The notes under the pieces are model-generated. The model was not told the origin of the DNA. It made no database searches and was given only the letters and a program-made list of their open reading frames with translations. From NCBI GenBank assembly GCA_965197455.1, contig OZ240208.1, positions 1,842,153 through 1,906,152 on the forward strand: DNA of 64,000 nucleotides. The letters run 5' to 3'. This document shows positions 5,965 through 47,094 of this stretch, one piece after another. The translations under genes and the position numbers were made by a program. The stretch is from Phototrophicaceae bacterium (GTDB lineage Bacteria > Chloroflexota > Anaerolineae > Aggregatilineales > Phototrophicaceae). Position 1 is the stretch's first letter. The number at the start of each line of letters is the position of its first letter.

Positions 5965-6103
5965 GATGCTCCCTGATCGCGGACACGGGGCGGGCAATAC
6001 TAGCAGCGCAGGCAGGAACCTGATAGCGTGATCCCCGCTCTTCACCTGGACAATCCGGCAGTATCCGTTACTATGAAAGCATTCGCGAATTCACGACGGT
6101 CTG

Positions 6104-6358
6104 ATGGAGGTGCGCGTTGTGAGCGAGGCCGACAAGCGGGCGGAACTACGCCGAATCGTGAATGAAGCACTGCGACTCTATCACAAGGGGCAACTGAGTG
6201 AAGTGGAACTGCGTGACATCGTGGCTTACGCAATTTCACTCGAGATGTCTGAATTCATGGACCAATCCATGTCCCGGCTGGAGCAAAGCATTACTCATCT
6301 GCTTGAGCAGGGTTCGGACAGCATATTTGCGTCTCATCTTGAAGGGGTTGGTTCATGA
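6104..6358 (+). CDS. Hypothetical small protein (84 aa) inside a low-GC islet
   Basis: ORF with reduced G+C. Its stop overlaps the next start (ATGA at 6355-6358). No recognisable motif and no obvious Shine-Dalgarno sequence. Confidence 0.4.
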   Translation: MEVRVVSEADKRAELRRIVNEALRLYHKGQLSEVELRDIVAYAISLEMSEFMDQSMSRLEQSITHLLEQGSDSIFASHLEGVGS

Positions 6359-6808
6359 GCGCAAATGTAGATCCGCGTGACAATAATGACCATGAAGAAT
6401 TGTCAGACTCAGATGAAGGAGAATCGACGGCCCTCCCTGATGAAGTGTTCGGGGAGCTAATCGAGGATTTACCACCCAAGGCTCGCCGGGAGTTGGTAGC
6501 CTCAGTCCTTTCTATCCAGCAACGCTTTGGGCCTCCAACAAATCCTGTTTTCTCTAAACTCAATGAGTCGCATATTGACAAGGCGCTGGATATTGTCCAG
6601 CACGATTCAGAAAGAACTCACGAATTACGAAAGAGTAATCGTAACTATCAACTTGTATATTTTTTTTGGTGTGATCATCGTTTTGGGTGCAGCAGTGGTC
6701 TGGTTGCTGCCGAGCTATCCTGAATTTCTGGATACCATCCTGAAGATTCTACTGGGTTTTGCTGGCGGCTTCGGCGCAGGCTATGGCCTGAAATCCAAAA
6801 CAGGTTGA
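6355..6808 (+). pseudogene. DUF2335-like membrane protein split by a frameshift at a T8 homopolymer
   Basis: The frame-1 ORF 6355..6723 encodes an acidic N-terminus plus RFGPPTNPVFSKL...ERTHELRKS. The two hydrophobic helices (GVIIVLGAAVVWLL, ILLGFAGGFGAGYGL) continue in frame 2 (ORF 6527..6808). The frames switch at the T8 run 6660..6667. Confidence 0.45.
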
Positions 6809-6844
6809 GGATAGTGAGCAGGTTACATAAGCGGGGAGGCCAGC

Positions 6845-7333
6845 GTGTCGCGCGAATTCCAAAACATGGTCGCAGTATTGCTGCTGACCCTGGCCGGATT
6901 TATCGTCATCCGGCAAATCATCACGTCCGACGCCGTCGCACTCGACTGGCCGCTGCCCCTTGTTCTCACCCTGGCGGGTCTGGCGCTGGCGCTGTTTCCC
7001 GAGCGTAGCGCTACCGGGCTCAGCCCCGTACCGGCAGCGAACGGGATGTCCCGCATGCCGCAACCAGTCGGCGATGACCTGACGCTCATCAAGGGCATTG
7101 GTCCGCAGCGGGCCCGCACTCTGGCACAGGCGGGCTGCGCCAACTTCAGCGATCTGGCGCGCGTCAGTGAATCGGAGTTGGCCCACATGCTGGCGGACGT
7201 CGGAGCAGTTGCGCCCACGTCAGCCGCGCTGCGCTCCTGGATCAAACAGGCCCAAATTGCCGGCGGCGGCAACATGGCCTGGCTGCGCGAGTATCAAGCG
7301 TCCCTGACCCCTCACGGCGAGGAGTCTGCCTGA
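6845..7333 (+). CDS. Membrane protein with a helix-hairpin-helix motif
   Basis: 162-aa ORF with a GTG start. Two N-terminal hydrophobic segments, then an HhH-like DDLTLIKGIGPQRARTLAQAGCANFSDLA. Confidence 0.6.
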   Translation: MSREFQNMVAVLLLTLAGFIVIRQIITSDAVALDWPLPLVLTLAGLALALFPERSATGLSPVPAANGMSRMPQPVGDDLTLIKGIGPQRARTLAQAGCANFSDLARVSESELAHMLADVGAVAPTSAALRSWIKQAQIAGGGNMAWLREYQASLTPHGEESA

Positions 7334-7451
7334 GTTCAGGCGGACTCGTACCAGTTCCTTCGTAACTTCAACCCCATCAGGCAACAATTTACTGTCTGGA
7401 CTCCTGCCAGTGCGCTGGACGCCGGTCACTGTCTGCGGCTTGCAGTGGCTC

Positions 7452-7850
7452 TCAGCCTTGTGCGCCGGGTTCGCAGAACTTGTAGAGGTTGCCGTCCGCA
7501 TCCAGCACGGCGAACTCCAGGCCCCAGGGCTGTTGCGCCAGCGGGCCGTTGGGGTGGATCACGCCCTGCGCCTGATACTCGGCATATAGCGTCCGCACAT
7601 CGCTGACGTAGACATAGCAGCTGGTGTTCTGCGCGATGTAGCGGTCGTTACACAGCCAGTAGTGTACGCTGATATCGTCGCGACTGAAGATAACGTAGTC
7701 GTCATGTTGAGTGTTGGTGGTTAAGCCCAGGCGTCGCTCGCAAAAGGCGACGGTGCGCTCAATATCCAGCGACGCGAGCACTGCGGCAACCTTGTTCAGG
7801 CGGGTGGTCAAACTATCTCCTGACACCGGGACACAAGACATTGCGGTCAA
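7452..7850 (-). CDS. Bleomycin-resistance/glyoxalase (VOC) family protein
   Basis: 132-aa ORF. Layout resembles bleomycin-binding proteins: FCERRLGL, DISVHYW, NTSCYVYVSDV, PWGLEFAVLDADGNLYKF. Start codon uncertain. Confidence 0.7.
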   Translation of the reverse strand: MTAMSCVPVSGDSLTTRLNKVAAVLASLDIERTVAFCERRLGLTTNTQHDDYVIFSRDDISVHYWLCNDRYIAQNTSCYVYVSDVRTLYAEYQAQGVIHPNGPLAQQPWGLEFAVLDADGNLYKFCEPGAQG

Positions 7851-7880
7851 CCCGGGAGCCGTGGTGTGTCAGGCGGGTGC

Positions 7881-10388
7881 TCAGGCTGGCCCGGCCGGCT
7901 CCTGCTCTTCCTCGACGGCCTCAAGAAGCAGGCGGCCATCCTCATCTGCGTCAACCAGCACGATGCTGGCCAGCTGGAAGCGGCCGGAGAGGATGCCGTC
8001 GGAAAGCACGTCCTCGACCTCGTTTTGAATCAGGCGCCGCAGCGGGCGGGCGCCAAACTCGGGATCGTAGCCATGGTCGGCCAGCCAGGTGCGCGCCTCG
8101 CTCGTCGCCTCCAGCGTGATGGCGTGCTCCAGCAAACGCGCGCGCACTTTCTCCAGCTCGAGCTCGACGATGTCGCGGATCTCGTCACGCGTCAGGGAGC
8201 GGAAGACGACCGTGGCGTCGACGCGGTTGAGGAACTCCGGGCGGAAAGCGCGGCGCAACTGCTCCATCACGTTGCGGCGCATGTCGGTGTAGGCTTCCTG
8301 TTCGGTGACGGCCTCGTCGCGGCTCAGGTCAAAGCCCAGACTGGTATTGCGCTTGATGGTGTCGGCGCCGACGTTGCTGGTCATGACGATGATGGCGTTG
8401 CGGAAATTGATGTTGCGGCCACGCGCGTCGCTCAGCTGCCCCTCTTCCATCACCTGCAGCAGCATGTTGAAGGCTTCCGGGTGCGCCTTCTCGATTTCGT
8501 CGAAGACGACGATGCTGTAGGGCCGGCGCCGGATGGCCTCGGTCAACTGGCCGGCGTCCTCGTAGCCCACGTAGCCTGGCGGGGCGCCCACCAGGCGCGC
8601 CACCGAATGCCGCTCCATGAACTCCGACATGTCCAGCTGCACCAGGGCATCCTCGCTGCCGAAGAGAAATTCGGCCAGGGCCTTGGTCAGCTCGGTCTTG
8701 CCGACCCCGGTGGGGCCAAGGAACATGAAAGAGCCGATCGGGCGGCGCGGGTCTTTCAGCCCGGCGCGGGCGCGACGCACGGCCTTGCTGATGGCGTCGA
8801 TGGCCTCGTTCTGGCCGACGATGCGCTGGTGCAGGGCTTCTTCCATCTGCATCAGGCGCTCACTTTCCTCACCGGCGATGCGCATCACCGGGATGCCGGT
8901 CCACATGGACACGACCTCGGCGATGTCCTCGCCCGTCAGGCGCGGCTGGTTGTTCTCCTCATTCCAGTTGGCCTTTAACCCGGCCAGCGCCTCCTGCAGC
9001 GTTTCCTGCTGCTGCTGCAGATGCCCCAGGCGCTCCTCCCGGGCTTCGTCCGGCCCCTGGTGCACCTCGGCATCCAGCAGCGCAATGTCCTCGCGGACGC
9101 GGCGCAGTTCCTTTTCCATGTTGCGCACACGGGCCGCTTCCGGGCTTTTGTACATGCGCAGGCGCGCGGCGGCCTCGTCGATCAGGTCGATGGCCTTGTC
9201 CGGCAGAAAACGATCGGGCACGTAGCGCGCCGAAAGATGGGCGGCCTGCTCGATGGCGTCGTTGGTGATTTCCACATTGTGGTGTTCCTGGTAGGGGCCG
9301 CGGATTCCCTGCAGAATCTCGATCGTCTCCTCGATGCCGGGCTCTTCCACCTGAATCTGCTGGAAGCGACGTTCCAGCGCGGCATCGTTCTCGATGTGCT
9401 TGCGATACTCGTCCAGCGTGGTCGCACCGATGCACTGCAGTTCGCCGCGGGACAGTGCTGGTTTGAGAATATTGGCCGCGTCTACGCTGCTACCGGCCGA
9501 GCCGGCGCCCACCAGCATGTGCACCTCATCAATAAAGAGAATGCTGTCCGAGGATTTCAGTTCCTCGATGACGCGCTTGAGCCGTTCCTCGAACTGGCCA
9601 CGGTACATGGTGCCCGCCACCAGCGAGCCGACGTCCAGCTGCAGCACACGCTTGTTCAGCAGCGGCCGCGGCGTGTCGCCACTGACGATGCGCTGCGCCA
9701 GGCCCTCGACGATGGCCGTCTTGCCCACGCCCGGCTCACCGATCAGCGCAGGGTTATTCTTGCGCCGCCGGCTGAGCACCTGAATGACTCTCTCGATTTC
9801 AATTTCGCGCCCCACGACCGGGTCCAGCTTGCCTTCCTGCGCGGCGGCGGTCAGGTCCGTCGCCAGCTGGTCGACCAGCTGCGTCTTGCCTTCACGCGTG
9901 CGCGTGCGTCGTTCTTCCTGTGGTGCCTGGCGGGGCTGCAGGGGACTTTCCTGCAACACGCGCCGCGTCTGGCGCCGCACTTCCTCCGGGCTGACACCCA
10001 GGCGCTTCAGCACCTCGATGGCCACGCCCTCGGTCTGGCGCACCAGACCCAGCAGGAGATGCTCTGTGCCGATGTAGTGATGTCCCAGGCGGCGCGCTTC
10101 ATCGACGGCCAGCTCGAGCACGCGTTTGGTGCCCGGCGACAGGTCGATCTGGCCGCCAGTGCCGCGCGAACTGGCGCGCGTCAACCGCTCGACCAGTTCC
10201 TCGATGCGACGTTGTTCCAGGCCAAGGTCGCGCAGGACGCGCCCGGCCACGCCGCCTTCCTCACGCATCAGGCCCAGCAGCAGATGTTCGGTGCCGATGG
10301 TGTTGTGCCGGAAGCGCTCCGCCTCTTCCTGCGCCAGGCTGAGCACACGCCGCGCCCGCTGGGTGAAGCGTTCCATTTTGTTCGGCAC
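7881..10388 (-). CDS. clpC: ATP-dependent Clp protease ATP-binding subunit ClpC
   Basis: 835 aa. Two Clp_N repeats ([10 protein letters not shown] appears twice). Two AAA modules with Walker A motifs GEPGVGKT and [12 protein letters not shown]-like linker. GTG start preceded by GGAGGGAGG. Confidence 0.95.
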
Positions 10389-36234: not shown

Positions 36235-36512
36235 CGCTCTGCTCCCTGTTGGCTAATGTGCATAGACTTTACGGCACTGTGCGATTATAGACAAGAGTCT
36301 GCGCATCGTTAGCCAAAACTCTGACAAAAAGTTTACGGTCACTCTGTTAACTTTACCCAATTTGCGGAATTGGCTTTCCCGGCGCAGCGCGGCGCGAATC
36401 GTGGTAGACTTTCGCGGCGGTGCATATAATTAAGGGGCAATGCCCTTTGCGCGGCACACACAAGCGATTGCGGGCCTGATTGCAGGCCTTGCAGGGAAAA
36501 CCAGGAGGAAGT

Positions 36513-38126
36513 ATGCGACGTATTCTGTTTTTGGCCATCGCACTGGCCCTGCTGTTGCCGGTCGCGGCTGCGTCCGCGCAAACCGTCCACACGGTCCAGC
36601 GCGGTCAGACTCTTTATTCCATTGGCATGCGTTACGGGGTGACTGTCGCAGAGATTCTCGCGGCCAACCCCTCACTGGGAACAGTCATCCACGCTGGCAA
36701 TCAGCTGATCATCCCGGTTCCCGGCCAGCCGGCGGCCCCCGTCCCCACGGCCCCACAACCCGGGCAGCCAACCACTGAAGTTCGACACACAGTCGCAGTC
36801 GGCGAGTATCTGGGCCTGATTGCCGAGCGTTATGACGTGCTCGTCGCTGATATCCTCCGTCACAACAATGTCGCCAATCCGGATCTCGTCTACCCCGGCA
36901 CCGTGCTCATCATTCCGGGCGTGGTGGTCGAAGCTGCACCGGCCCCGGTCACAACTACAACTGAGACGCAGCCGACCGGCGAGGTTCAGCATATCGTCGC
37001 AGTCGGCGAATATCTGGGCCTGATTGCCGAACGCTACGATGTACTTGTTGCTGACATTCTCCGACGCAACAACATCGCCAACCCGGATCTTGTCTACCCC
37101 GGCACCGTGCTCATCATCCCGGGCGTGGCGCCTGAAACGCCGGCGCCAGCGCCAGCGCCTGATACACCAGCGCCCATCGTCGCACCCGCTGTCGGCGGTG
37201 GCTTTGCGCTTGGCGGACAGGCGCTCAGCTTCGCCTGGCCACACCATATGCACGCAGCGCGCATGACCTGGGTCAAGCGCCAGGTGCGCTATCACCAGGG
37301 CGACAACGCCGGTAACGTGCGCGGCGTGATCGACCAGGCGCATGGCGCAGGCTTCCGCGTGCTGCTCAGCATCGTCGGTGAGCCGGGCCAGATGGCGCCC
37401 AATCCCGCTGGCTACACCCAGGAATTTGTCAACTTCCTGGGCGGTGTGGCATCGCTGGGCCCGGATGCCATCGAGGTCTGGAACGAGCAAAACATCGATC
37501 GAGAATGGCCCAACGGGCAGATTAGCCCGCAGGCCTACACCTCCATGCTCAGTGCCGCCTACAACGCCATCAAGGGCGCCAACGCCAACGTGATGGTCAT
37601 CAGCGGCGCGCCGGCACCCACCGGCTTCTTCGGTGGCGGCTGTCAGGGGTCCGGTTGTGACGACCTGCCCTTCATTCAGGGTATGGCCGCAGCCGGCGCC
37701 GCCAACTACATGGACTGTGTCGGTGTGCACTACAACGAAGGCATTCTCGGCCCCGACGCCCGTAGTGGTGACCCGCGCGGCAGCGGCGGACACTATACGC
37801 GCTACTACTCACGGATGTTCGAAACCTACGCCGCCACCTTCCCCGGCAAACCGCTCTGCTTCACCGAGCTTGGCTACCTGAGCAGAGAGGGCTACGGCCC
37901 GCTGCCGGGCGCCTTCGGCTGGGCGGCCAACGTCACCGTCGCCAACCAGGCGGAATGGCTCGGGCGCGCGGTCACCCTGGCGCGCAACAGCGGTCGTGTG
38001 CGTTTGTTCATCGTCTGGAACGTCGACGCCACGCGCTTCGACTCGGATCCGCAGGCCGGCTACGCCATCGTGCGGCCCGGCGGGAACTGTCCCGCCTGTG
38101 GCCCGCTGGCAGCAGCCATGTCCTGA
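36513..38126 (+). CDS. Secreted protein with three LysM domains plus a clan GH-A (GH5-like) TIM-barrel glycosidase domain
   Basis: ATG 36513 follows AGGAGG. Signal peptide MRRILFLAIALALLLPVAAASA. Three LysM units (HTVQRGQTLYSIGMRYGV..., and VAVGEYLGLIAERYDV... twice). Catalytic-type motifs EVWNEQN and CFTELGY. Confidence 0.85.
   Translation: MRRILFLAIALALLLPVAAASAQTVHTVQRGQTLYSIGMRYGVTVAEILAANPSLGTVIHAGNQLIIPVPGQPAAPVPTAPQPGQPTTEVRHTVAVGEYLGLIAERYDVLVADILRHNNVANPDLVYPGTVLIIPGVVVEAAPAPVTTTTETQPTGEVQHIVAVGEYLGLIAERYDVLVADILRRNNIANPDLVYPGTVLIIPGVAPETPAPAPAPDTPAPIVAPAVGGGFALGGQALSFAWPHHMHAARMTWVKRQVRYHQGDNAGNVRGVIDQAHGAGFRVLLSIVGEPGQMAPNPAGYTQEFVNFLGGVASLGPDAIEVWNEQNIDREWPNGQISPQAYTSMLSAAYNAIKGANANVMVISGAPAPTGFFGGGCQGSGCDDLPFIQGMAAAGAANYMDCVGVHYNEGILGPDARSGDPRGSGGHYTRYYSRMFETYAATFPGKPLCFTELGYLSREGYGPLPGAFGWAANVTVANQAEWLGRAVTLARNSGRVRLFIVWNVDATRFDSDPQAGYAIVRPGGNCPACGPLAAAMS
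36777..37128 (+). repeat. Tandem duplication of a LysM-encoding unit (two units of about 148 nt, spaced 204 nt apart)
   Basis: Unit A 36777..36924 and unit B 36981..37128 are near-identical in protein (EV.H.VAVGEYLGLIAERYDVLVADILR.NN.ANPDLVYPGTVLIIPGV). The DNA differs mainly at synonymous positions. Confidence 0.85.
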
Positions 38127-38136
38127 GGCAACACAA

Positions 38137-38199
38137 CCCGGGCTGCGGCCCGGGCCTGCAATCTGGCAGGGCGCTCCGTGCGGGGCGCCCTGTTCGTTT
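38137..38199 (+). terminator. Two tandem hairpins downstream of the LysM-glycosidase gene
   Basis: Hairpin 1: cccgggc-tgcg-gcccggg (38137-38154). Hairpin 2: cagggcgc...gcgccctg (38167-38192), followed by ttcgttta. Confidence 0.6.
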
Positions 38200-38218: not shown

Positions 38219-38404
38219 TCAGCGCAACCTGGCCAGCAGCGCGAACAGGATGACGAGGGCCAGCAGGATGGTGGCAACGGCGCGCCAGCTGCGCGCGCCC
38301 CGAATCATGCCGATGACTACATGTCCGGCGGCAAACACGATGATGAGCGAACACAGGTACAGCTGTTTACCGTTGGCGGAGAGGTCGGACTGGATCGGAT
38401 TCAT
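38219..38404 (-). CDS. Small hydrophobic protein (about 61 aa, two predicted TM segments)
   Basis: ORF 38219..38419. ATG 38404 (MNPIQSD) is the likely start. Hydrophobic segments LYLCSLIIVFAAGHVVIGMI and AVATILLALVILFALLA. Weak RBS. Lies 64 nt downstream of the preceding gene. Confidence 0.4.
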   Translation of the reverse strand: MNPIQSDLSANGKQLYLCSLIIVFAAGHVVIGMIRGARSWRAVATILLALVILFALLARLR

Positions 38405-38468
38405 CTGACAGCGTCTCACTCAAGCAGGAAAGTGGCCGGCCTTCCGCCCGGGCGCATGGCCCGAAGTG

Positions 38469-39146
38469 TCAGCCGGGGGCGGGCGTCGTGGGGGCCAGCA
38501 GGGTCAGCGCCTGGCTCACCAGAAAGCCGAGACGTTCGCTGAAAATGGTCAGGCTGGTCAGGATGGCCGCCGCGTAGATCGCGCCCAGCGTGATGACGAT
38601 GATGCCCTGCCCCAGCACCGCCAGCAGCTGGACGTGCGGCCGGCGTCGCCCTGGCCCCTCCGGCTGGCGCCGCGCCTGATACTGAAAGTAGGCGAGGGTG
38701 CAGATCACGCCGACGGGCAGCAGGATACTGCTGATGTTGCCCGGAACGACCCCTGCGCCGGTGTCGCGCAGTAGCGGCAACAAAGTGCCGTTGATGGCGC
38801 CGTCCAGCGCCACCGCCGTCCCCACCCCGATGAGAAAGGCCAGCGCCAGCCGGCTCAATCCCGCACCGCGCGGCGACCCGGACCTGGCCAGCAACAGCAG
38901 GCCCAACAGCACAGGCGTCATCCCCAGGGTCAGCTGATCCACAGGCGCGTTCGTTTGCAACACTGTGTCTTGCAACCAGGGCAGAATGACCCCGTCCCAG
39001 ACCACGATGGCGCTGTAGCCGGCGGCCAGTCCTGCAAAGACATACACCGCCAGTCTGTACAGCAGATTGTCGCCCAGCAGGTAACTGAAAATCATCAGCG
39101 TAAGGATGAAGGACGCCCAAAGGCCAATCATCTCGGTGCTAATCAT
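38469..39146 (-). CDS. Polytopic integral membrane protein, unknown function
   Basis: 225 aa with about 6 hydrophobic segments. 8-nt overlap with the upstream gene. Chosen over the alternative-frame ORF 38416..39120, which is Arg/Gly-rich. Confidence 0.7.
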   Translation of the reverse strand: MISTEMIGLWASFILTLMIFSYLLGDNLLYRLAVYVFAGLAAGYSAIVVWDGVILPWLQDTVLQTNAPVDQLTLGMTPVLLGLLLLARSGSPRGAGLSRLALAFLIGVGTAVALDGAINGTLLPLLRDTGAGVVPGNISSILLPVGVICTLAYFQYQARRQPEGPGRRRPHVQLLAVLGQGIIVITLGAIYAAAILTSLTIFSERLGFLVSQALTLLAPTTPAPG

Positions 39147-41295
39147 CCCGGCGCGCCCTCCTCCTGCGCCTTACAGCGCCGCCCATATTGCCGAGCGCGC
39201 CCAGCGCGATCAACGCAATGCTGAGCGCCAGGCCGATGTGGATAGAGGCTTCCCGTTCCACAGCCTGCGGGATCGTCCCTGATGCGGCCGCATCCGCTGG
39301 CGCCTGGGCCGCCTCCACGCTTTCAGGTTGCGGCGCCGCAATCGTCGGCGTTGGCAGCGGCGTCGTGGTTGGCAATGGCGTGGGGGAGACAGGCGTCTCC
39401 TGCCGCGGCACGTCCTCAATGCTGTACGCGCCCAGGTCCAGACTGGCGCCCGGCAGCCAGCCACGCAGGCCGCCGTTGGTCTGAACGAAGAGCCAGTCGC
39501 CCGCCCCGTTGCGCAGCAGCACCAGCACGGTGTCCCCCGGGTTCACCGCGCCGACCGCCGGCGAGCTCAAATCTGCAGCGCTAAAGAGCGAGAGCACAGC
39601 GGCCAGCGGCGACACGGTGCCGGGGACGATGCCCGCTGTCGCCGCCGCTGCTGACGCTGCCGCGGACTGCTGGCTGGCTGCCTGCGCCTGCGCGCCGGCC
39701 ACCGGCACGACCGTCTCCGCAGCGCTCCAGTTGCCGTCGCCGGCGAGATTGCGGGCGCGCACCTGGAATTCGTAGGTCTCGTCATTGCTGAGTCCCGTCG
39801 CCGTGTAGGTCGTCGTGGTCGTGTCTGCGAAGCGCCAGTCCTCTGTGCCGGTGCGCCAACGCAGCCGGTAGCCGGTGACGGCCGAGCCGCCGTCGTCGGA
39901 GGGCTCGCGCCAGCTGGCCGTCGCGCGCTCGTCGCCAACGCTCAGGTCAAGCGAGCGAGGCCGCGACGGGACAGTCCGCGGCGCGTCAGTAATCTCTTCA
40001 CTCCAGCCACTGTCGCCCTCGCTGTTGCTGGCGCGCACCTGGATATCGTAAGGTGTGCCGTTATCAAGACCCGCCAGGGTGAAACTTGTGTCCGTGCTGG
40101 CTATAGCAACTTCCACCCATACCTGGTGCGGGGTAGACAGGTGACGAATGGTGTAGCCGGTGATTGGAGCGCCTCCGTCAGACAGGGGCGGATCCCAGGT
40201 CAGGTCGATGCTGTCATCGAGACTTGTCGCCCCCAGGTTTCTGGGCGCCGAGGGCGGACCGACGATTACCTCAAGCTCCAGCAGCTGCTTGTCATAGGTC
40301 AGCGCATCGCGGAAGCCGCTCATCATGCCCGCCAGCGCCACATTCAGCCAGGGTCGGGTCAGCGGCGCGGCAGACTGCCCCACCGCGCCCAGCAGCTCGC
40401 TGTCGGCGAGGGGCCCGATCTGCTCGGCCCACTGCCGCATGTCGCCGGGCCGCTCGACGATGACGAGCACGCGCGCGAAATCCGCCAGTTCGTTTACTTC
40501 CAGGTCGATGGCCGTGCCGCGCAGGTCCGTGGCCAGCTGTTTTTCCAGGTTCAGGGTCAGCGCGCGCAGGCCCGCCATGTCGCCGGCGAGGAAGCGCGTC
40601 ACAAACCAGTCCGCATTGGCCAGCAGCGCCCCGTCGCGCTCCAGCCGCTGCGCCAGCGATGAATCCGCCGCGCCCGCTTCCGTCAGCATGAGCTCTGTTC
40701 GCAACAGCGTGACCGGGTAGCGACTGACCACGACCGGCACGGCGCGCCGCAGCAGAATGTGACGCAGCAACACCGAGGCGACCGTGTCCAGCTCGCCGGC
40801 GGCGGTCGGGCCATATTCCATGCCGACCAGCACCAGTTCACCAGGTGCCAGCGCATCAAGCGCCTCGTAGAGCGTTTGTTGCGGGCTGTCGGCGGGAAAT
40901 GCAGCCGGGGCGCTTTCGCCCAGGCGCGTCTCCGCGCTGTAGAAGGGCAGCAGCATACCGGTAGCCAGCACCAGCGAGACGAGGATACGGTCGCCGCTCA
41001 GGCGCAGGCGGGGGCGCCGGCGCCGGCCAGGCGCAGCGCTGGCGACGGCCCCGACAGCGGGCGCAAAAACGTTGGGCACAGACGAGGGGTCGCGCCGGCC
41101 CAACTGTTCGCTGCGCGCGCGCAGCCGGCGCATCCTGCGGGTCAGGCGGTTAAGCGGACGATCACGCAACTGGCCGAGCAAGGCATGCAGGGGAGAGGTA
41201 GTGGAAGGGTCTCCGGCCCAGGCCGCAGGGTTCTGGCCGCTGTCACCAGGCGACCAGGGGTCGTCGCCGCTGCCCTGCCCGTAGGCGTCAGTCAT
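39139..41295 (-). CDS. Bitopic/doubly anchored envelope protein: Arg-rich N-terminus, TM, unassigned domain of about 270 aa, two FN3 domains, Ala-rich linker, SH3b-like domain, Pro/Thr linker, C-terminal TM plus basic tail
   Basis: 718 aa. FN3 signatures PRNLGATSLDDSIDLTWDPPLSDGGAPITGYTIR and PRSLDLSVGDERATASWREPSDDGGSAVTGYRLRW. SH3b-like GDTVLVLLRNGAGDWLFVQTNGGLRGWLP. C-terminal IHIGLALSIALIALGALGNMGGAVRRRRRARRDD. Confidence 0.8.
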   Translation of the reverse strand: MTDAYGQGSGDDPWSPGDSGQNPAAWAGDPSTTSPLHALLGQLRDRPLNRLTRRMRRLRARSEQLGRRDPSSVPNVFAPAVGAVASAAPGRRRRPRLRLSGDRILVSLVLATGMLLPFYSAETRLGESAPAAFPADSPQQTLYEALDALAPGELVLVGMEYGPTAAGELDTVASVLLRHILLRRAVPVVVSRYPVTLLRTELMLTEAGAADSSLAQRLERDGALLANADWFVTRFLAGDMAGLRALTLNLEKQLATDLRGTAIDLEVNELADFARVLVIVERPGDMRQWAEQIGPLADSELLGAVGQSAAPLTRPWLNVALAGMMSGFRDALTYDKQLLELEVIVGPPSAPRNLGATSLDDSIDLTWDPPLSDGGAPITGYTIRHLSTPHQVWVEVAIASTDTSFTLAGLDNGTPYDIQVRASNSEGDSGWSEEITDAPRTVPSRPRSLDLSVGDERATASWREPSDDGGSAVTGYRLRWRTGTEDWRFADTTTTTYTATGLSNDETYEFQVRARNLAGDGNWSAAETVVPVAGAQAQAASQQSAAASAAAATAGIVPGTVSPLAAVLSLFSAADLSSPAVGAVNPGDTVLVLLRNGAGDWLFVQTNGGLRGWLPGASLDLGAYSIEDVPRQETPVSPTPLPTTTPLPTPTIAAPQPESVEAAQAPADAAASGTIPQAVEREASIHIGLALSIALIALGALGNMGGAVRRRRRARRDD

Positions 41296-41974
41296 CGCGC
41301 TCGCTCCGCAGGCTACGGTCCTGCCCGGTGAGGACGCGGGCGCCGGCGATGATGGTGGCCAGCGCGATGCCCAGCAGGATGCCGCGGGCGCCGGCGTTGA
41401 CCGGCACCGCCAGCAGCCAGTCGCGCAAGGGAATCAGCGGCGCCAAAACCGGCAGGGGCAGCGCAGCCGCCAGCACGATGAGCACGGTGAAGACGAAGAG
41501 CGAGCCCCAGCCACTGACGCGAACGGCCATCACGCGCCAGGCGCCATACACCAGCGCGAACAGCAGCAGCCCGGCCAGCGAGGATTCGACCGTGACCTGC
41601 ACCTGTTCCAGCAGCAGGTCGCGCCATACCGCACCGCCGGTAATCAGATTCTCGCGCTCCAGGTAGGTCAGCGCAATGACCGTCGCGGCGCTGAGGAAGA
41701 GCAGGAAGCTGTAACCGCAGCCGGTTTCGCGCCGGCCGGCGCGCCGCAGATGTACCAGCAACAGGTTGGAGATACCGACCAGAATGGTCACGGCAATGCT
41801 GATCGAGAACAACTGCAGCAGCGAGGCCGTCCACTCCAGAATACGCGGCTCCCAGGCCGCCAGCAAGCCGCCCAGCACCACTACCTGCTGCTCCAGCAAC
41901 AGGCCGGTCAGCGTCACCAGCGCGGTGGCCAGCGCAACGAGCACTGCGACCAGCGTGAAGAAACTGCCCATCAT
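41288..41974 (-). CDS. Polytopic integral membrane protein, unknown function
   Basis: 228 aa with about 6 hydrophobic segments. 4-nt overlap upstream and 8-nt overlap downstream. Preferred over the alternative-frame ORF 41313..41993, which is Arg/Gly/Ala-rich. Confidence 0.7.
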   Translation of the reverse strand: MMGSFFTLVAVLVALATALVTLTGLLLEQQVVVLGGLLAAWEPRILEWTASLLQLFSISIAVTILVGISNLLLVHLRRAGRRETGCGYSFLLFLSAATVIALTYLERENLITGGAVWRDLLLEQVQVTVESSLAGLLLFALVYGAWRVMAVRVSGWGSLFVFTVLIVLAAALPLPVLAPLIPLRDWLLAVPVNAGARGILLGIALATIIAGARVLTGQDRSLRSERDD

Positions 41975-42753
41975 GCCGTGGAGGCTCCGCCACTGTAAGC
42001 CAGGAGCACCAGCGCGACCAGCGCAGCGATCAGCAGCCAGCGCAGCGTATCCTGCAACAGCACGGCCGAATGGTTGCCGGAAGTCGGGTTCAGCCAGGCG
42101 CCGGCGTAGAAGAGCTCCTCGCCGATCAGGGGCTCAGCACCGGTCGCCCAGGCCACTGCCTGCCCGTCCAGCTGGTCGCTGACGGCCAGCAAGGCCTGGC
42201 CGTGCCGCGCCGCCGCCAGGCTGACCAGCGCCAGTTCCGGCCCGAAACTGCCGACCAGCAGGTTGGCGCCGACGTCTTCATTGCCCATCAGCGCGCTCGT
42301 CGCGCCGGCCCAGGCCAGCGAACGCGGCCCGTCCGGGAACCAGCGCAGCGTGCCGGGCAACATGCTACCGGCAAAGCCGCGCGCCCGTTGCGCCCGTCGC
42401 AATGTATCGTAGCCAAGCGGAATCATCGTGGTGGCGCTGGTGGTCAGGATGACCGGGCCCTGCGCCTGGCGCGCCGCCTGATAAACGACCTCCGCGCCCG
42501 CCAGCGCCACCAGCGTGTCGCTGCCCTGCAGGCCGGCGCTGCCCGTGGATAGATGCACGGGGCGTCCCTGGTTGGCGCTGCGCTCAAGCATTCGCGGCAG
42601 TGCCTCCCAGGCGGCAACGCGTCGCAGACTGCGCGCGCTGCGGCGTGTGACGGCCACAGAAGACATGCCGAGGCCCAGCGCGACCAGCAAGGGCAGCACC
42701 AAGCTGGCGTTTTGCTCAAGCAGGGTCAGAAGTGGTTCGAGCGACGCCATCAA
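41971..42753 (-). CDS. Membrane-anchored protein of unknown function (N- and C-terminal TM segments flanking a domain of about 200 aa)
   Basis: 260 aa. N-terminal SLVLPLLVALGLGMSSVAV and C-terminal WLLIAALVALVLLAY flank a soluble-looking core. ATGA overlaps at both ends. Confidence 0.7.
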   Translation of the reverse strand: MMASLEPLLTLLEQNASLVLPLLVALGLGMSSVAVTRRSARSLRRVAAWEALPRMLERSANQGRPVHLSTGSAGLQGSDTLVALAGAEVVYQAARQAQGPVILTTSATTMIPLGYDTLRRAQRARGFAGSMLPGTLRWFPDGPRSLAWAGATSALMGNEDVGANLLVGSFGPELALVSLAAARHGQALLAVSDQLDGQAVAWATGAEPLIGEELFYAGAWLNPTSGNHSAVLLQDTLRWLLIAALVALVLLAYSGGASTA

Positions 42754-42983
42754 CGGTCGCTTTCCAGCATAGTACGCAGGCGCTCAACGCCGTCCGGCTC
42801 CTGCAGAATCTCGGCCAGACGCCCGGTGACCGCCGCTGCGCCGAACAGGCCACAGAGTGGCTGTGCGACCCACAGGAGCTGTGCGCCTGGCACGCCCAGC
42901 GGCTCGATTACGTCCAGCAGAAGCCGCAGCGGGCCGCCCAGACCGCGCGCCTGCAACTCGCGTATCCAGTCCTGCTCGGTCAT
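42750..42983 (-). CDS. Small protein (77 aa), unknown function; first gene of the membrane operon
   Basis: ATG 42983. The stop overlaps the next start (ATGA). No Shine-Dalgarno sequence. A TATACT box ends 7 nt upstream of the ATG. Confidence 0.55.
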   Translation of the reverse strand: MTEQDWIRELQARGLGGPLRLLLDVIEPLGVPGAQLLWVAQPLCGLFGAAAVTGRLAEILQEPDGVERLRTMLESDR

Positions 42984-42990
42984 GGGCGCA

Positions 42991-43018
42991 AGTATAGCAC
43001 AGGCACATACGCCGCAAA
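42991..43018 (-). promoter_or_regulatory. Candidate promoter giving a leaderless or near-leaderless transcript for the 42983 operon
   Basis: Minus strand reads TTTGCG, a 16-nt spacer, then TATACT (plus-strand agtata 42991-42996). The -10 box ends 7 nt before ATG 42983. Confidence 0.35.
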
Positions 43019-43084
43019 ATCAGACGCCCTCTCGCATTCCGCGTGGCCAGCCCGCCCGGCGACCCCACCACCCTGGCGGCGCGC

Positions 43085-43114
43085 TTGACAGCTCGCGCGA
43101 CTCTCCCCTATCAT
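43085..43114 (+). promoter_or_regulatory. Candidate sigma70-type promoter for yceD-like gene
   Basis: TTGACA (43085-43090), an 18-nt spacer, then TATCAT (43109-43114). It lies about 30 nt upstream of ATG 43146. Confidence 0.5.
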
Positions 43115-43145
43115 TTCGGCACAGTCATTTCTGCGATGAACGAAT

Positions 43146-45346: not shown

Positions 45347-45783
45347 CGCCACCCCAATCCCGTTTCACAGCATTGAGACAACCTCGCCACTACCTGGAGA
45401 TGCTGTTGTCCTTTGCTTGACTCACAACTTAATAATGACTTTTTGTCCCGTTTTTGTTCGCATTCCTGAACGCCCGCCTGCCACGACTGTCAGGCTTGGC
45501 ATCCGTCACACTGCCACAAGTTTGAACCTGTACTCCAGGTAGCGGAAACCGGGACTCGCTGATTCCACGCGCGCGCATCAAAGCTGCTGCACCGCGCTGC
45601 CAGTGCCGTTGTCACGTTTCGAAACCATAGAACATAACCTTGCCATACACTGAACCCGCGCCTTGACCTTGTCTTTACCTTTCATTAAGGTTGCGCTCGC
45701 GGGACCTGGTTTCTCCATGGCTGCCTCTCTGCACCCGACGCCACGTTCCAACGGTGCATTCCCCCGCAACGAGGAGGCAGTCT

Positions 45784-47094
45784 GTGAAACGCTTGCTGTA
45801 CGTCGCGCTGCTGGTCGTCCTGACAGCCGCTGCCCTGTACGCCGCTGGCGCGCAGAACACGTCACAGGCCCAGGAGCAATGGCGCGGCCTGCGCGTCGCT
45901 GTCGAAAACCGTTGCGCGCCCTATGACCGCGATGATTATCCCTATTCCCAGTCCGTCGAGCTGAACATCATCGCGCGCGAGGGCGGGGCCATCTGCAGCC
46001 CCTACACCAACGAGTGCTTTGAAACGCGCTTCGAAACCGACATTGAGCACATCGTCGCCGTGTCCGAAGCGCACGACAGCGGCCTCTGCGCTGCCAGCAA
46101 TGCCACCAAACGACAGTTTTCCTCCGACCTGCGCAACCTGACCCTGGCCTCGCCCGCACTGAACCGCAACCAGAAGCGCGCGAAGGACGCCGCTGACTGG
46201 CGGCCGACACAAAATCGCTGCTGGTTCGCCAACCAGATCATCACGGTGCGCCGCGCCTATGACCTGAGCATCGACCGGCGTGAGGCGAATGCGCTGGACA
46301 GGATTCTGGAAGGCTGCGGCACGACCGGGACAGTGGCGCCGGACGCAGGCTACGTCGTCACCCACAGCAGCACGGTGAATGCGCGCTCCTGCGCGGACAC
46401 GGCCTGCGCCATCGTCACCACCTTCCGCAGCGGTCAGGCGCTGGACGTGATCGAGCAGGTGACCGGTGTGGCCTGGCGCGACGACACGCGCTGGCTGAAA
46501 GTCCGCCATGCGGACACTGAGGTCTACGTGCACGCTTCCCTGGCCGGGAGGGCTACCGCCACGCCGGCAGCCATAGTGACGTCCACACCGAGGCCGACCA
46601 GCGCAGCGCCCTCCGTCAACGTGAACCAGGCGACCACCCGTTACTACGTCGTCGCGTCAGTCAGTGTCAACGCGCGCAGTTGCCCGCGAACCAGTTGCAA
46701 TGTCATCACCAGCTTCGCGCGCGGCGCTGCGGTCAACGTTCTGCAGCGCGTCTCCGGCGAGTCCGTCAGCGGCAATGCGAGCTGGCAGGCGGTACGACAC
46801 AACAATGCGGTGGCCTACATCCACGCCCCCCTGCTGTCGCAGACCCGGCCGAGCGCGGTCAGCGCTCCCGCGCCACAACCGGTTTCGCGGTCAGTACAAC
46901 CGGCGTCTGCGCCGCAGCAGCAGGTGCAGCCGACCACCGTGCCGGGCTCGCAATTCAGCTGCAACTGCTCAAAGACCTGCGGCGCCATGGCCTCCTGTCA
47001 GGAAGCCTACTTCCAGCTGAACCAGTGCGGCTGTTCGCGCCGTGACTCGGACAGTGACAGCGTGCCCTGCGAGAGCATCTGCCCAGGAGGCTAA
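45784..47094 (+). CDS. Secreted DUF1524/HNH-type nuclease fused to two SH3b-like domains and a C-terminal Excalibur Ca-binding domain
   Basis: GTG 45784 follows GAGGAGG. Signal peptide KRLLYVALLVVLTAAALYAAGA. Nuclease block YDRDDY...DIEHIVAVSEAHDSG...NLTLASPALNRNQK. Two units of the type NARSC..T.C.(V/I)(I/V)T.F.(R/S)G.A..V...V. C-terminal CSRRDSDSDSVPCESIC. Confidence 0.75.
   Translation: MKRLLYVALLVVLTAAALYAAGAQNTSQAQEQWRGLRVAVENRCAPYDRDDYPYSQSVELNIIAREGGAICSPYTNECFETRFETDIEHIVAVSEAHDSGLCAASNATKRQFSSDLRNLTLASPALNRNQKRAKDAADWRPTQNRCWFANQIITVRRAYDLSIDRREANALDRILEGCGTTGTVAPDAGYVVTHSSTVNARSCADTACAIVTTFRSGQALDVIEQVTGVAWRDDTRWLKVRHADTEVYVHASLAGRATATPAAIVTSTPRPTSAAPSVNVNQATTRYYVVASVSVNARSCPRTSCNVITSFARGAAVNVLQRVSGESVSGNASWQAVRHNNAVAYIHAPLLSQTRPSAVSAPAPQPVSRSVQPASAPQQQVQPTTVPGSQFSCNCSKTCGAMASCQEAYFQLNQCGCSRRDSDSDSVPCESICPGG

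Follow-up and report, generated by a model that had tools for sequence, protein, structure and literature searches.

What kind of system is encoded by a chain of five envelope genes to which no function could be given from the DNA alone? The genes lie on the minus strand of a 64,000-nucleotide stretch of the genome of a Phototrophicaceae bacterium (assembly GCA_965197455.1, contig OZ240208.1, positions 1,842,153 to 1,906,152). This stretch is called the window below, and its own numbering is used throughout. An initial annotation had described five genes linked by overlapping stop and start codons, followed by a sixth small hydrophobic open reading frame (ORF). All six minus-strand ORFs were found where that annotation had placed them (Table 1), and the overlaps at the four junctions of genes 1 to 5 measure 4, 4, 8 and 8 nt. 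Homologues of each of the five products are present in dozens of genomes, and these ORFs are therefore genes rather than chance reading frames of a high-GC sequence.

A conserved gene cassette in Anaerolineae

The surroundings of the genes were compared at 85 related loci, comprising three distant loci, 80 loci from species-representative genomes and two from close relatives (individual loci are denoted L001, L002 and so on). The order small protein, DUF6754 protein, transmembrane (TM) protein A, large SH3b protein and TM protein B is kept in the 85 loci, with median intergenic gaps of 3–12 nt, and the window follows this order, each of its five products matching its counterpart. The five genes are the core of a conserved cassette. 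The proposal that the products of 77, 260, 228, 718 and 225 residues belong to one gene unit is thus borne out, as the order, far from being limited to this genome, is kept at loci across Anaerolineae.

Every source of the 85 loci that could be identified is a metagenome-assembled genome (MAG) of Anaerolineae, assigned to Aggregatilineales, Phototrophicaceae or Anaerolineaceae, or labeled only as Chloroflexi/Chloroflexota. The named DUF6754 sequences recovered in a profile search (see below) are likewise from Anaerolineaceae or Chloroflexota, so that the cassette is confined to Anaerolineae in every named source seen. The genes flanking the cassette are not conserved along with it. In the list of the best 80 loci, almost every genome is represented by one cassette locus. 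Two different copies, L063 and L074, were found in one MAG (isolate d8f7b2d0-...), one on the chromosome and the other on a 70-kb contig; they may represent a true duplication, or else the bin may contain a second strain.

Association with an actin-fold ATPase

In most lineages, the cassette continues beyond gene 5 into a gene for a GlmL/MutL-type, actin-fold (ASKHA) ATPase of Pfam family PF13941. Among the 68 loci with at least 2 kb of sequence beyond gene 5, this gene comes next in 66, and it is also present in a 67th (L037), where its start was called differently. The median gap to gene 5 is 3 nt, and the genes are coupled. The ATPase has about 590–650 residues and matches PF13941 from end to end, with E values of 1e-45 to 1e-63; the "MutL" of this family is the GlmL/MutL protein of glutamate mutase operons. 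The phosphate motifs DxGxxxTR and GGTDxGA are retained, and an extra C-terminal region of 130–190 residues is beta-rich and charged, with no TM segment. No mutase genes were found near the cassette ATPase, and the family has no relative in the Protein Data Bank (PDB) by sequence or profile.

The initial annotation had seen no ATPase, which is correct for the window and its near relatives but not for the system elsewhere. With the ATPase gene coupled to the cassette in 66–67 of the 68 other loci, association with an ATPase is the rule for the system, and the window copy is a reduced variant of it. The gene is likewise absent from this position in the close relatives L006, L086 and L087, whose DUF6754 proteins are 73–92% identical to that of the window. 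Common to these loci and the window is a syntenic block of the fifth gene, a small ORF with two TM segments, a convergent LysM gene and glnA. The two-TM peptide, which occupies the slot of the ATPase gene in this clade, is the sixth ORF of the initial annotation. It exists as described, and the reported distance of 64 nt downstream fits a start at the conserved ATG at 38404, which yields a product of 61 residues; it is, however, a clade-specific addition outside the conserved cassette. Its homologues occur in L006, L086 and L087, where the core QRLYLCSLIxxFAAGxVxIGMIR is conserved, and none was found in the other 80 loci.

The peptide is kept in all four ATPase-less genomes, with a dN/dS of 0.35 against L087, and the five core genes inside this clade are under purifying selection, with dN/dS values of 0.14–0.43. 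The ATPase-less form is therefore a maintained variant rather than a decaying one. As no ATPase gene adjoins the cassette in this clade, its core would be either ATP-independent or served by an ATPase encoded elsewhere.

At 37 loci, two further coupled genes follow the ATPase gene. The product of gene 7 is soluble and has no meaningful PDB match by sequence or profile; that of gene 8 combines SH3b, TM and a basic tail in a layout that resembles the C-terminal part of the large cassette protein. Neither gene has a homologue in the window. Three grades of cassette thus exist, with eight genes, with six genes, and with five genes plus the peptide, as in the window.

The large doubly anchored protein

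Homologues of the gene 4 product were compared from 73 loci, where they occupy the same operon position and range from 487 to 2025 residues. The domain architecture of the window protein (Table 1) agrees with the initial annotation in the TM helix at residues 104–122, the two FN3 domains, the SH3b domain, the C-terminal TM helix and the Arg-rich tail; the unassigned domain, however, spans about 225–240 residues and not 270. Three elements, the cytoplasmic helical motif, the domain between the first TM helix and the FN3 pair (the ectodomain), and the C-terminal juxtamembrane motif, are each present in 72 of the 73 homologues.

The large proteins begin with an acidic, aromatic N-terminus, MSDDFxxxDLxWL, which takes the form DDPWSPG...AAWAGD in the window. 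The cytoplasmic helical motif reads SAAAxxRQxxDRPxEELxDRLxxLRxR (window form SPLHALLGQLRDRPLNRLTRRMRRLRAR). Invariant residues of the ectodomain lie in the motifs EYGPTAAGELD, DYY, ERxxDxRxWAEQ and GxxDAxTY, and the C-terminal TM helix lies between the motif ERWxAMxLG and an Arg-rich tail. The variation in length resides mostly in the cytoplasmic head, which has about 100 residues in the window and 500–1500 residues in other lineages, where it is acidic and apparently disordered, with PDWL and DDFF repeats. The heads of two such proteins (L013:11369-13840 and L020:11396-16000) are extremely acidic, with the repeats LPDWL, DDFFA and FGQWD, and look like arrays of linear binding motifs.

Most versions of the large protein, though not all, have SH3b domains with Pro/Thr linkers, usually one or two per protein; the SH3_3 model matched four of six distant homologues scanned, and also L001, L002 and L004. 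The FN3 domains of the window protein (Pfam score 106.7 bits) form two copies, residues 349–436 and about 443–528. The pair is a clade-specific insertion: beyond the window it was recorded in the close relatives L086 and L087 alone, and it is absent from the six distant homologues. Both TM helices carry basic residues at their cytoplasmic ends, and by the positive-inside rule the central part of the protein is predicted to lie outside the cell. The suggestion that the protein displays FN3 and SH3b modules at the outer surface is consistent with this charge pattern, with the reservation that the FN3 modules are lineage-specific and not part of the conserved core.

The ectodomain was modeled with AlphaFold2 (AF2) from an alignment of eight sequences, a word-indexed protein search having returned only three and then six matches despite the large size of the family. 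The model is a six-stranded, Rossmann-like domain with a predicted local distance difference test (pLDDT) score of 79, exceeding 90 in the core. Foldseek comparison with the PDB gave generic matches, such as the N-terminal domain of G6PD, the epsilon subunit of carbon monoxide dehydrogenase and domain III of transhydrogenase, with a best E value of 1.2e-3 and TMq values of at most 0.39. No PDB relative of the ectodomain was found by sequence.

The DUF6754 protein

The gene 2 product matches the Pfam family DUF6754 (PF20539) with 50.3 bits against a cut-off of 27, over model positions 13–247 of 257, and the same match was obtained for 29 of 29 aligned homologues. The earlier view of the operon as one of no recognizable function needs a correction here, since this protein belongs to a named family, although the Pfam entry assigns that family no function. 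When 1.84 billion representative proteins were searched with a profile of the family, 1832 clusters at 50% identity were obtained, 1344 of them with E values of 1e-10 or better; the 150 best matches listed are mostly near full-length proteins of 245–280 residues, the shorter ones being matched in part. Within the literature library searched, DUF6754 and PF13941 are mentioned in no paper.

Hydropathy agrees with the earlier reading of a TM helix at either end of the protein. In the AF2 model (29-sequence alignment, pLDDT 86), two TM helices flank a Rossmann-like alpha/beta domain with five to six strands and about 190 residues; by the positive-inside rule, the domain would be cytoplasmic. Two Gly-rich loops, HLSxGSAGLG and GSFGPELAL, follow strands one and four. 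The best Foldseek match in the PDB has an E value of 2.9e-3 with a TM-score of about 0.3, and the matches are a mixture of Rossmann folds that includes the signal recognition particle GTPase, shikimate dehydrogenase, SLOG and RCK. The SLOG domain of ThsA, the TRPM2 N-domain and the Moco carrier protein are among them, at E values of about 1e-2 and TM-scores of 0.3–0.49, amid many other Rossmann folds. The likeness of GSAGLG and GSFGPE to the Gly-rich motifs of SLOG proteins is a motif reading by eye, and none of 29 DUF6754 members gave a SLOG or LOG match in Pfam. The family has no meaningful PDB match by sequence or profile. Homology between the DUF6754 domain and the ectodomain of the large protein was considered and rejected (hhalign probability 0.3%).

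The polytopic proteins and the small soluble protein

The initial annotation gave the two remaining membrane proteins about six TM segments each, and hydropathy indicates six for the gene 3 product and five to six for the gene 5 product. Conserved motifs are NLLxVHxxR, LLExVQVxIES and PVSAGARGILLGIALAT...GQDRSYRE in the former, and FSYxLGDNxLYRLAVY, GTLLPL, YFQY and ILTSLTIFSER in the latter. Neither has a Pfam, NCBIfam or PDB relative by sequence, and neither contains an internal repeat. The two were tested as paralogues and rejected, BLASTP and hhalign both being negative. No invariant cysteine was found in either family.

When 49 members of each polytopic family were scanned against Pfam and NCBIfam at E values up to 1, no family recurred. 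TMD0_ABC was matched by only five of 49 members (best E value 4.8e-5) and not by the window protein; a single FtsX match in one of 49, at an E value of 0.07, was discarded as noise. The Rnf-Nqr Pfam model gave no match, nor did exosortase, archaeosortase or sortase families. No protein of the window cassette matched an ABC ATPase model or the permease models ABC-2, BPD_transp, FtsX and EcfT in Pfam or NCBIfam.

The 77-residue product of gene 1 has no match in Pfam or NCBIfam. Its homologues, of about 87 residues, are encoded before the DUF6754 gene in 77 loci and conserve W6, D24, P28, AQ34-35 and P41. Overall, sequence comparison with Pfam, NCBIfam, PADLOC and PDB profiles assigned the membrane components to no characterized transporter, secretion, division or defense family, in line with the initial annotation, and the cassette would be rated as lying outside the known kinds of system.

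A candidate trans-envelope complex

The reading that we favor, at a little less than an even chance, is that the cassette encodes a membrane complex of a kind not yet described, which would connect a cytoplasmic module with the cell wall and, in most lineages, be powered by the ATPase. Its topology, assembly, wall binding and function are inferred as follows. The products would assemble into one complex of the cytoplasmic membrane, with the two unrelated six-TM subunits as its membrane body. The Rossmann-like domain of the DUF6754 protein would be held at the inner face by the TM clamp at its two ends. The large protein would loop through the membrane by means of its two TM helices, exposing the ectodomain and the peptidoglycan-type SH3b domain (together with the FN3 pair here) outside, and keeping the conserved helical motif and the acidic aromatic tail inside. 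The cytoplasmic module would then comprise the 77-residue protein, the DUF6754 domain and the cytoplasmic part of the large protein, with the ATPase added in most lineages, while the link to the wall would be made by the ectodomain and SH3b. Acting as a scaffold or mechanotransmitter across the membrane, such a complex might contribute to wall-associated morphogenesis or to surface organization in these filamentous bacteria.

Several points weigh against this proposal. Operon coupling is indirect evidence for complex formation, and the two modeled domains have generic Rossmann-like folds that are uninformative on activity. The ectodomain has many acidic and aromatic residues that are invariant, a pattern as compatible with an enzyme as with a scaffold. 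The SH3b match of the window protein is barely above threshold, and SH3b domains also bind ligands other than peptidoglycan. The GlmL/MutL relatives known so far are soluble proteins that serve B12 enzymes in the manner of chaperones or reactivases, and we know of none that acts as the motor of a membrane machine. Finally, the 64-kb window contains no ATPase gene at an E value of 1e-3 or better (tblastn, with two cassette ATPases as queries), and an ATP-driven mechanism is therefore extrapolated from other genomes.

A bolder version, which we consider somewhat unlikely, is that of an undescribed trans-envelope machine of Anaerolineae in which the GlmL/MutL ATPase drives or organizes a four-subunit membrane complex. 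The doubly anchored SH3b protein would give this complex its grip on the wall, and filament morphogenesis, cohesion between cells or surface movement would thereby come under its control. In the clade of the window, the core would have stayed functional after the ATPase gene left the operon.

Comparison with known systems and alternative explanations

The cassette ATPase is a full-length member of PF13941 with intact nucleotide-binding motifs, which places it with the branch of GlmL/MutL, EutA and the diol-dehydratase reactivases. It differs from that branch in that its cassette partners are membrane proteins and in its extra C-terminal domain of 130–190 residues. The proposed complex shares with FtsEX and EnvC/PcsB the concept of a cytoplasmic ATPase that changes the conformation of a membrane protein and thereby acts on an external, wall-acting domain. 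However, FtsE belongs to the ABC ATPases and FtsX has four TM segments, whereas the cassette has neither an ABC nor an FtsX signature, and no hydrolase partner is conserved beside it. In its concept the favored complex would also resemble RodZ and MreCD acting with MreB, but all the membership features examined for the two systems were negative.

The alternative that fares best, while still unlikely, is a transporter in which the two six-TM proteins would form a heterodimeric permease, the ectodomain an external substrate-binding or auxiliary subunit (GldG-like), and the DUF6754 domain a cytoplasmic ligand-binding gate. GldF/GldG-like ABC-2 systems do combine a six-TM protein of about 220–240 residues with a large, doubly TM-anchored protein built around an external alpha/beta domain, as in the cassette. 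The presence of two polytopic proteins of transporter-like size, the Rossmann-like alpha/beta domain modeled on each side of the membrane, the Gly-rich loops of DUF6754, and the ligand-binding SLOG and RCK domains among its Foldseek matches are all consistent with transport. These matches are weak (TM-score about 0.3), however, and the scans of 49 members per polytopic family found no recurrent ABC, MFS, ABC-2, ECF, Rnf/Nqr or other transporter family. The two proteins also lack internal repeats and mutual homology. In contrast to GldF/GldG, the cassette has no match to ABC_transp_aux or ABC-2 and no ABC ATPase gene, and no GldG-like structure is among the top 50 Foldseek matches of the ectodomain. 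The partner ATPase is instead of the ASKHA type, and we know of no transporter energized by such an ATPase.

A receptor for an actin-like cytoskeleton is quite unlikely. Here the GlmL/MutL-type ATPase would polymerize and the cassette would anchor the filaments, much as RodZ and MreCD do for MreB, with the filament protein lost or relocated in the clade of the window. Like the cassette, the MreB-RodZ-MreC-MreD system groups the genes for an actin-fold ATPase, a bitopic adaptor and polytopic partners. The adaptor RodZ resembles the large protein in its cytoplasmic motif, TM helix, Pro/Thr-rich linker and external wall-facing domain. The ATPase has intact phosphate motifs, 66 of 68 loci have its gene coupled to the cassette, and the hosts of the cassette are filamentous bacteria. 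On the other side, no cassette component matches the MreB_Mbl, MreC, MreD or RodZ models of Pfam and NCBIfam; the ATPase is of the GlmL/MutL type, the large protein has two TM anchors, and the window has no ATPase. The core remains under purifying selection where no ATPase gene adjoins it, and relatives of PF13941 are grouped with the non-polymerizing enzymes of the actin superfamily (PMC5597319). The cyanobacterial actin FcmB was rejected as a relative, as it belongs to a ParM-derived family.

The C-terminal layout of the large protein raises the prospect of a sorting or anchoring system, in which the Pro/Thr linker, TM helix and Arg-rich C-terminus would form a sorting signal and one polytopic protein its processing enzyme, as for exosortase and PEP-CTERM or archaeosortase and PGF-CTERM. 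We regard this as improbable. The tripartite layout is accompanied by the juxtamembrane motif ERWxAMxLG in nearly all homologues, gene 8 has the same SH3b, TM and basic-tail layout, and substrate and membrane proteins co-occur one to one. However, the large protein begins with a TM anchor and a long cytoplasmic head rather than a signal peptide; the polytopic proteins have no conserved cysteine and no exosortase, rhomboid, CPBP or sortase signature; and the ATPase and the DUF6754 subunit are without counterpart in sorting systems. The juxtamembrane motif matches, to our knowledge, no described CTERM class.

That the cassette is an anti-phage defense or mobile accessory module, common in these MAGs by chance, is highly improbable: restriction-modification genes do adjoin some loci (MmeI in L002, GmrSD in L086), but PADLOC gave no family for the ATPase, gene 7 or any of the five window proteins, synteny with the housekeeping genes yceD, pucR and glnA is stable within the clade, almost every genome in the list of the best 80 loci has one locus, and the flanking genes are not conserved together with the cassette.

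Locus features and genomic neighborhood

The features of the locus are collected in Table 1. The homologues of the 260-residue protein have 259 residues and an N-terminus of MA or MT, and the true start of gene 2 is therefore probably the ATG at 42750, one codon downstream of the called start, which gives a TGATG junction with the upstream stop. Between the end of the extended -10-like element TGCTATACT and the ATG of gene 1 there are 8 nt, which contain no Shine-Dalgarno sequence; this suggests that the operon transcript is leaderless or near-leaderless. The hairpin beyond the operon is a likely bidirectional terminator. An Rfam scan of the whole window gave no matches.

Table 1. Features of the cassette locus (window coordinates; the last two rows refer to locus L008).
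Feature	Coordinates	Strand	Basis or remarks
Gene 1, 77-residue soluble helical protein, first gene of the cassette	42750..42983	-	ORF call
Gene 2, DUF6754 protein, 260 residues as called	41971..42753	-	Pfam PF20539
Gene 3, polytopic membrane protein A, 228 residues	41288..41974	-	ORF call, hydropathy
Gene 4, 718-residue doubly anchored envelope protein	39139..41295	-	ORF call, homologues
Gene 4 residues 1-103, cytoplasmic head	40987..41295	-	Acidic Trp-containing N-terminus, RDRPLxxLxxRLxxLRxR, Arg cluster
Gene 4 residues 104-122, first TM helix	40930..40986	-	Hydropathy; RRRRPRLR before it
Gene 4 residues about 123-345, conserved Rossmann-like domain	40261..40929	-	In 72/73 homologues
Gene 4 residues 349-528, two FN3 domains	39712..40251	-	PF00041, E 7e-31
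Gene 4 residues 567-619, SH3b domain	39439..39597	-	PF08239, E 1.3e-6, 29.0 bits vs cut-off 27
Gene 4 residues 683-718, C-terminal TM, juxtamembrane motif ERxxxxxLG...G.LxN, RRRRRARRDD tail	39139..39249	-	Hydropathy, alignment
Gene 5, polytopic membrane protein B, 225 residues	38469..39146	-	ORF call, hydropathy
Small two-TM ORF, 66 residues from GTG	38219..38419	-	ORF list
Small two-TM peptide, 61 residues from ATG 38404	38219..38404	-	Start conserved in relatives
GC-rich hairpin GGGCGC...GCGCCC between operon and convergent LysM gene	38170..38192		Conserved in L006; terminator-like site 38180-38193
Possible promoter: TTGCGG, 15 nt, TGCTATACT	42984..43020	-	Consensus match read from sequence
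Gene 7, soluble protein, 358 residues	L008:18544-19620		Sub-threshold NqrA_N barrel-sandwich/lipoyl-like match, 21.5 bits vs cut-off 25
Gene 8, protein with acidic head, TM, SH3b and TM	L008:19653-20729		Detected in 25 of 37 loci

The convergent neighbor (36480-38126, plus strand) encodes a secreted protein with three LysM domains and a weak glycoside-hydrolase (GH113-like) match in its C-terminal region; it adjoins the cassette in L006, L086 and L087 and not in other lineages. On the other side, a glycosyltransferase gene of family GT4 lies between yceD and gene 1 in two of these relatives (L086:7516-8658 and L087:7508-8659), and is adjacent in L001 too. The window has only 163 nt at this position (42984-43145), the gene having been lost or never inserted. 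An ORF at 45691-47094 (plus strand) combines a GmrSD_C domain (HNH-type nuclease) with two SH3b domains and an Excalibur calcium-binding domain, an unusual architecture that is apparently that of an extracellular, wall-tethered nuclease; the equivalent region of L087 contains four consecutive genes for SH3b proteins. The GC content is 0.58 at positions 6001–8000 and 0.60–0.72 elsewhere in the window.

Implications

Anaerolineae are abundant filamentous bacteria of wastewater sludge, sediments and the subsurface, and little is understood of their envelope and cell biology. The cassette, in its forms of five to eight genes, is kept across this class, the DUF6754 family alone comprising at least 1300 clusters at 50% identity. 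With no detectable relation to the divisome, the elongasome, transporters or secretion systems, it is a good candidate for a lineage-specific envelope machine. The series of variants, with eight genes, six genes, or five genes plus the peptide, offers natural comparisons for which parts need the ATPase. If the proposed complex is real, it would be the first membrane context for actin-fold ATPases of the GlmL/MutL branch.

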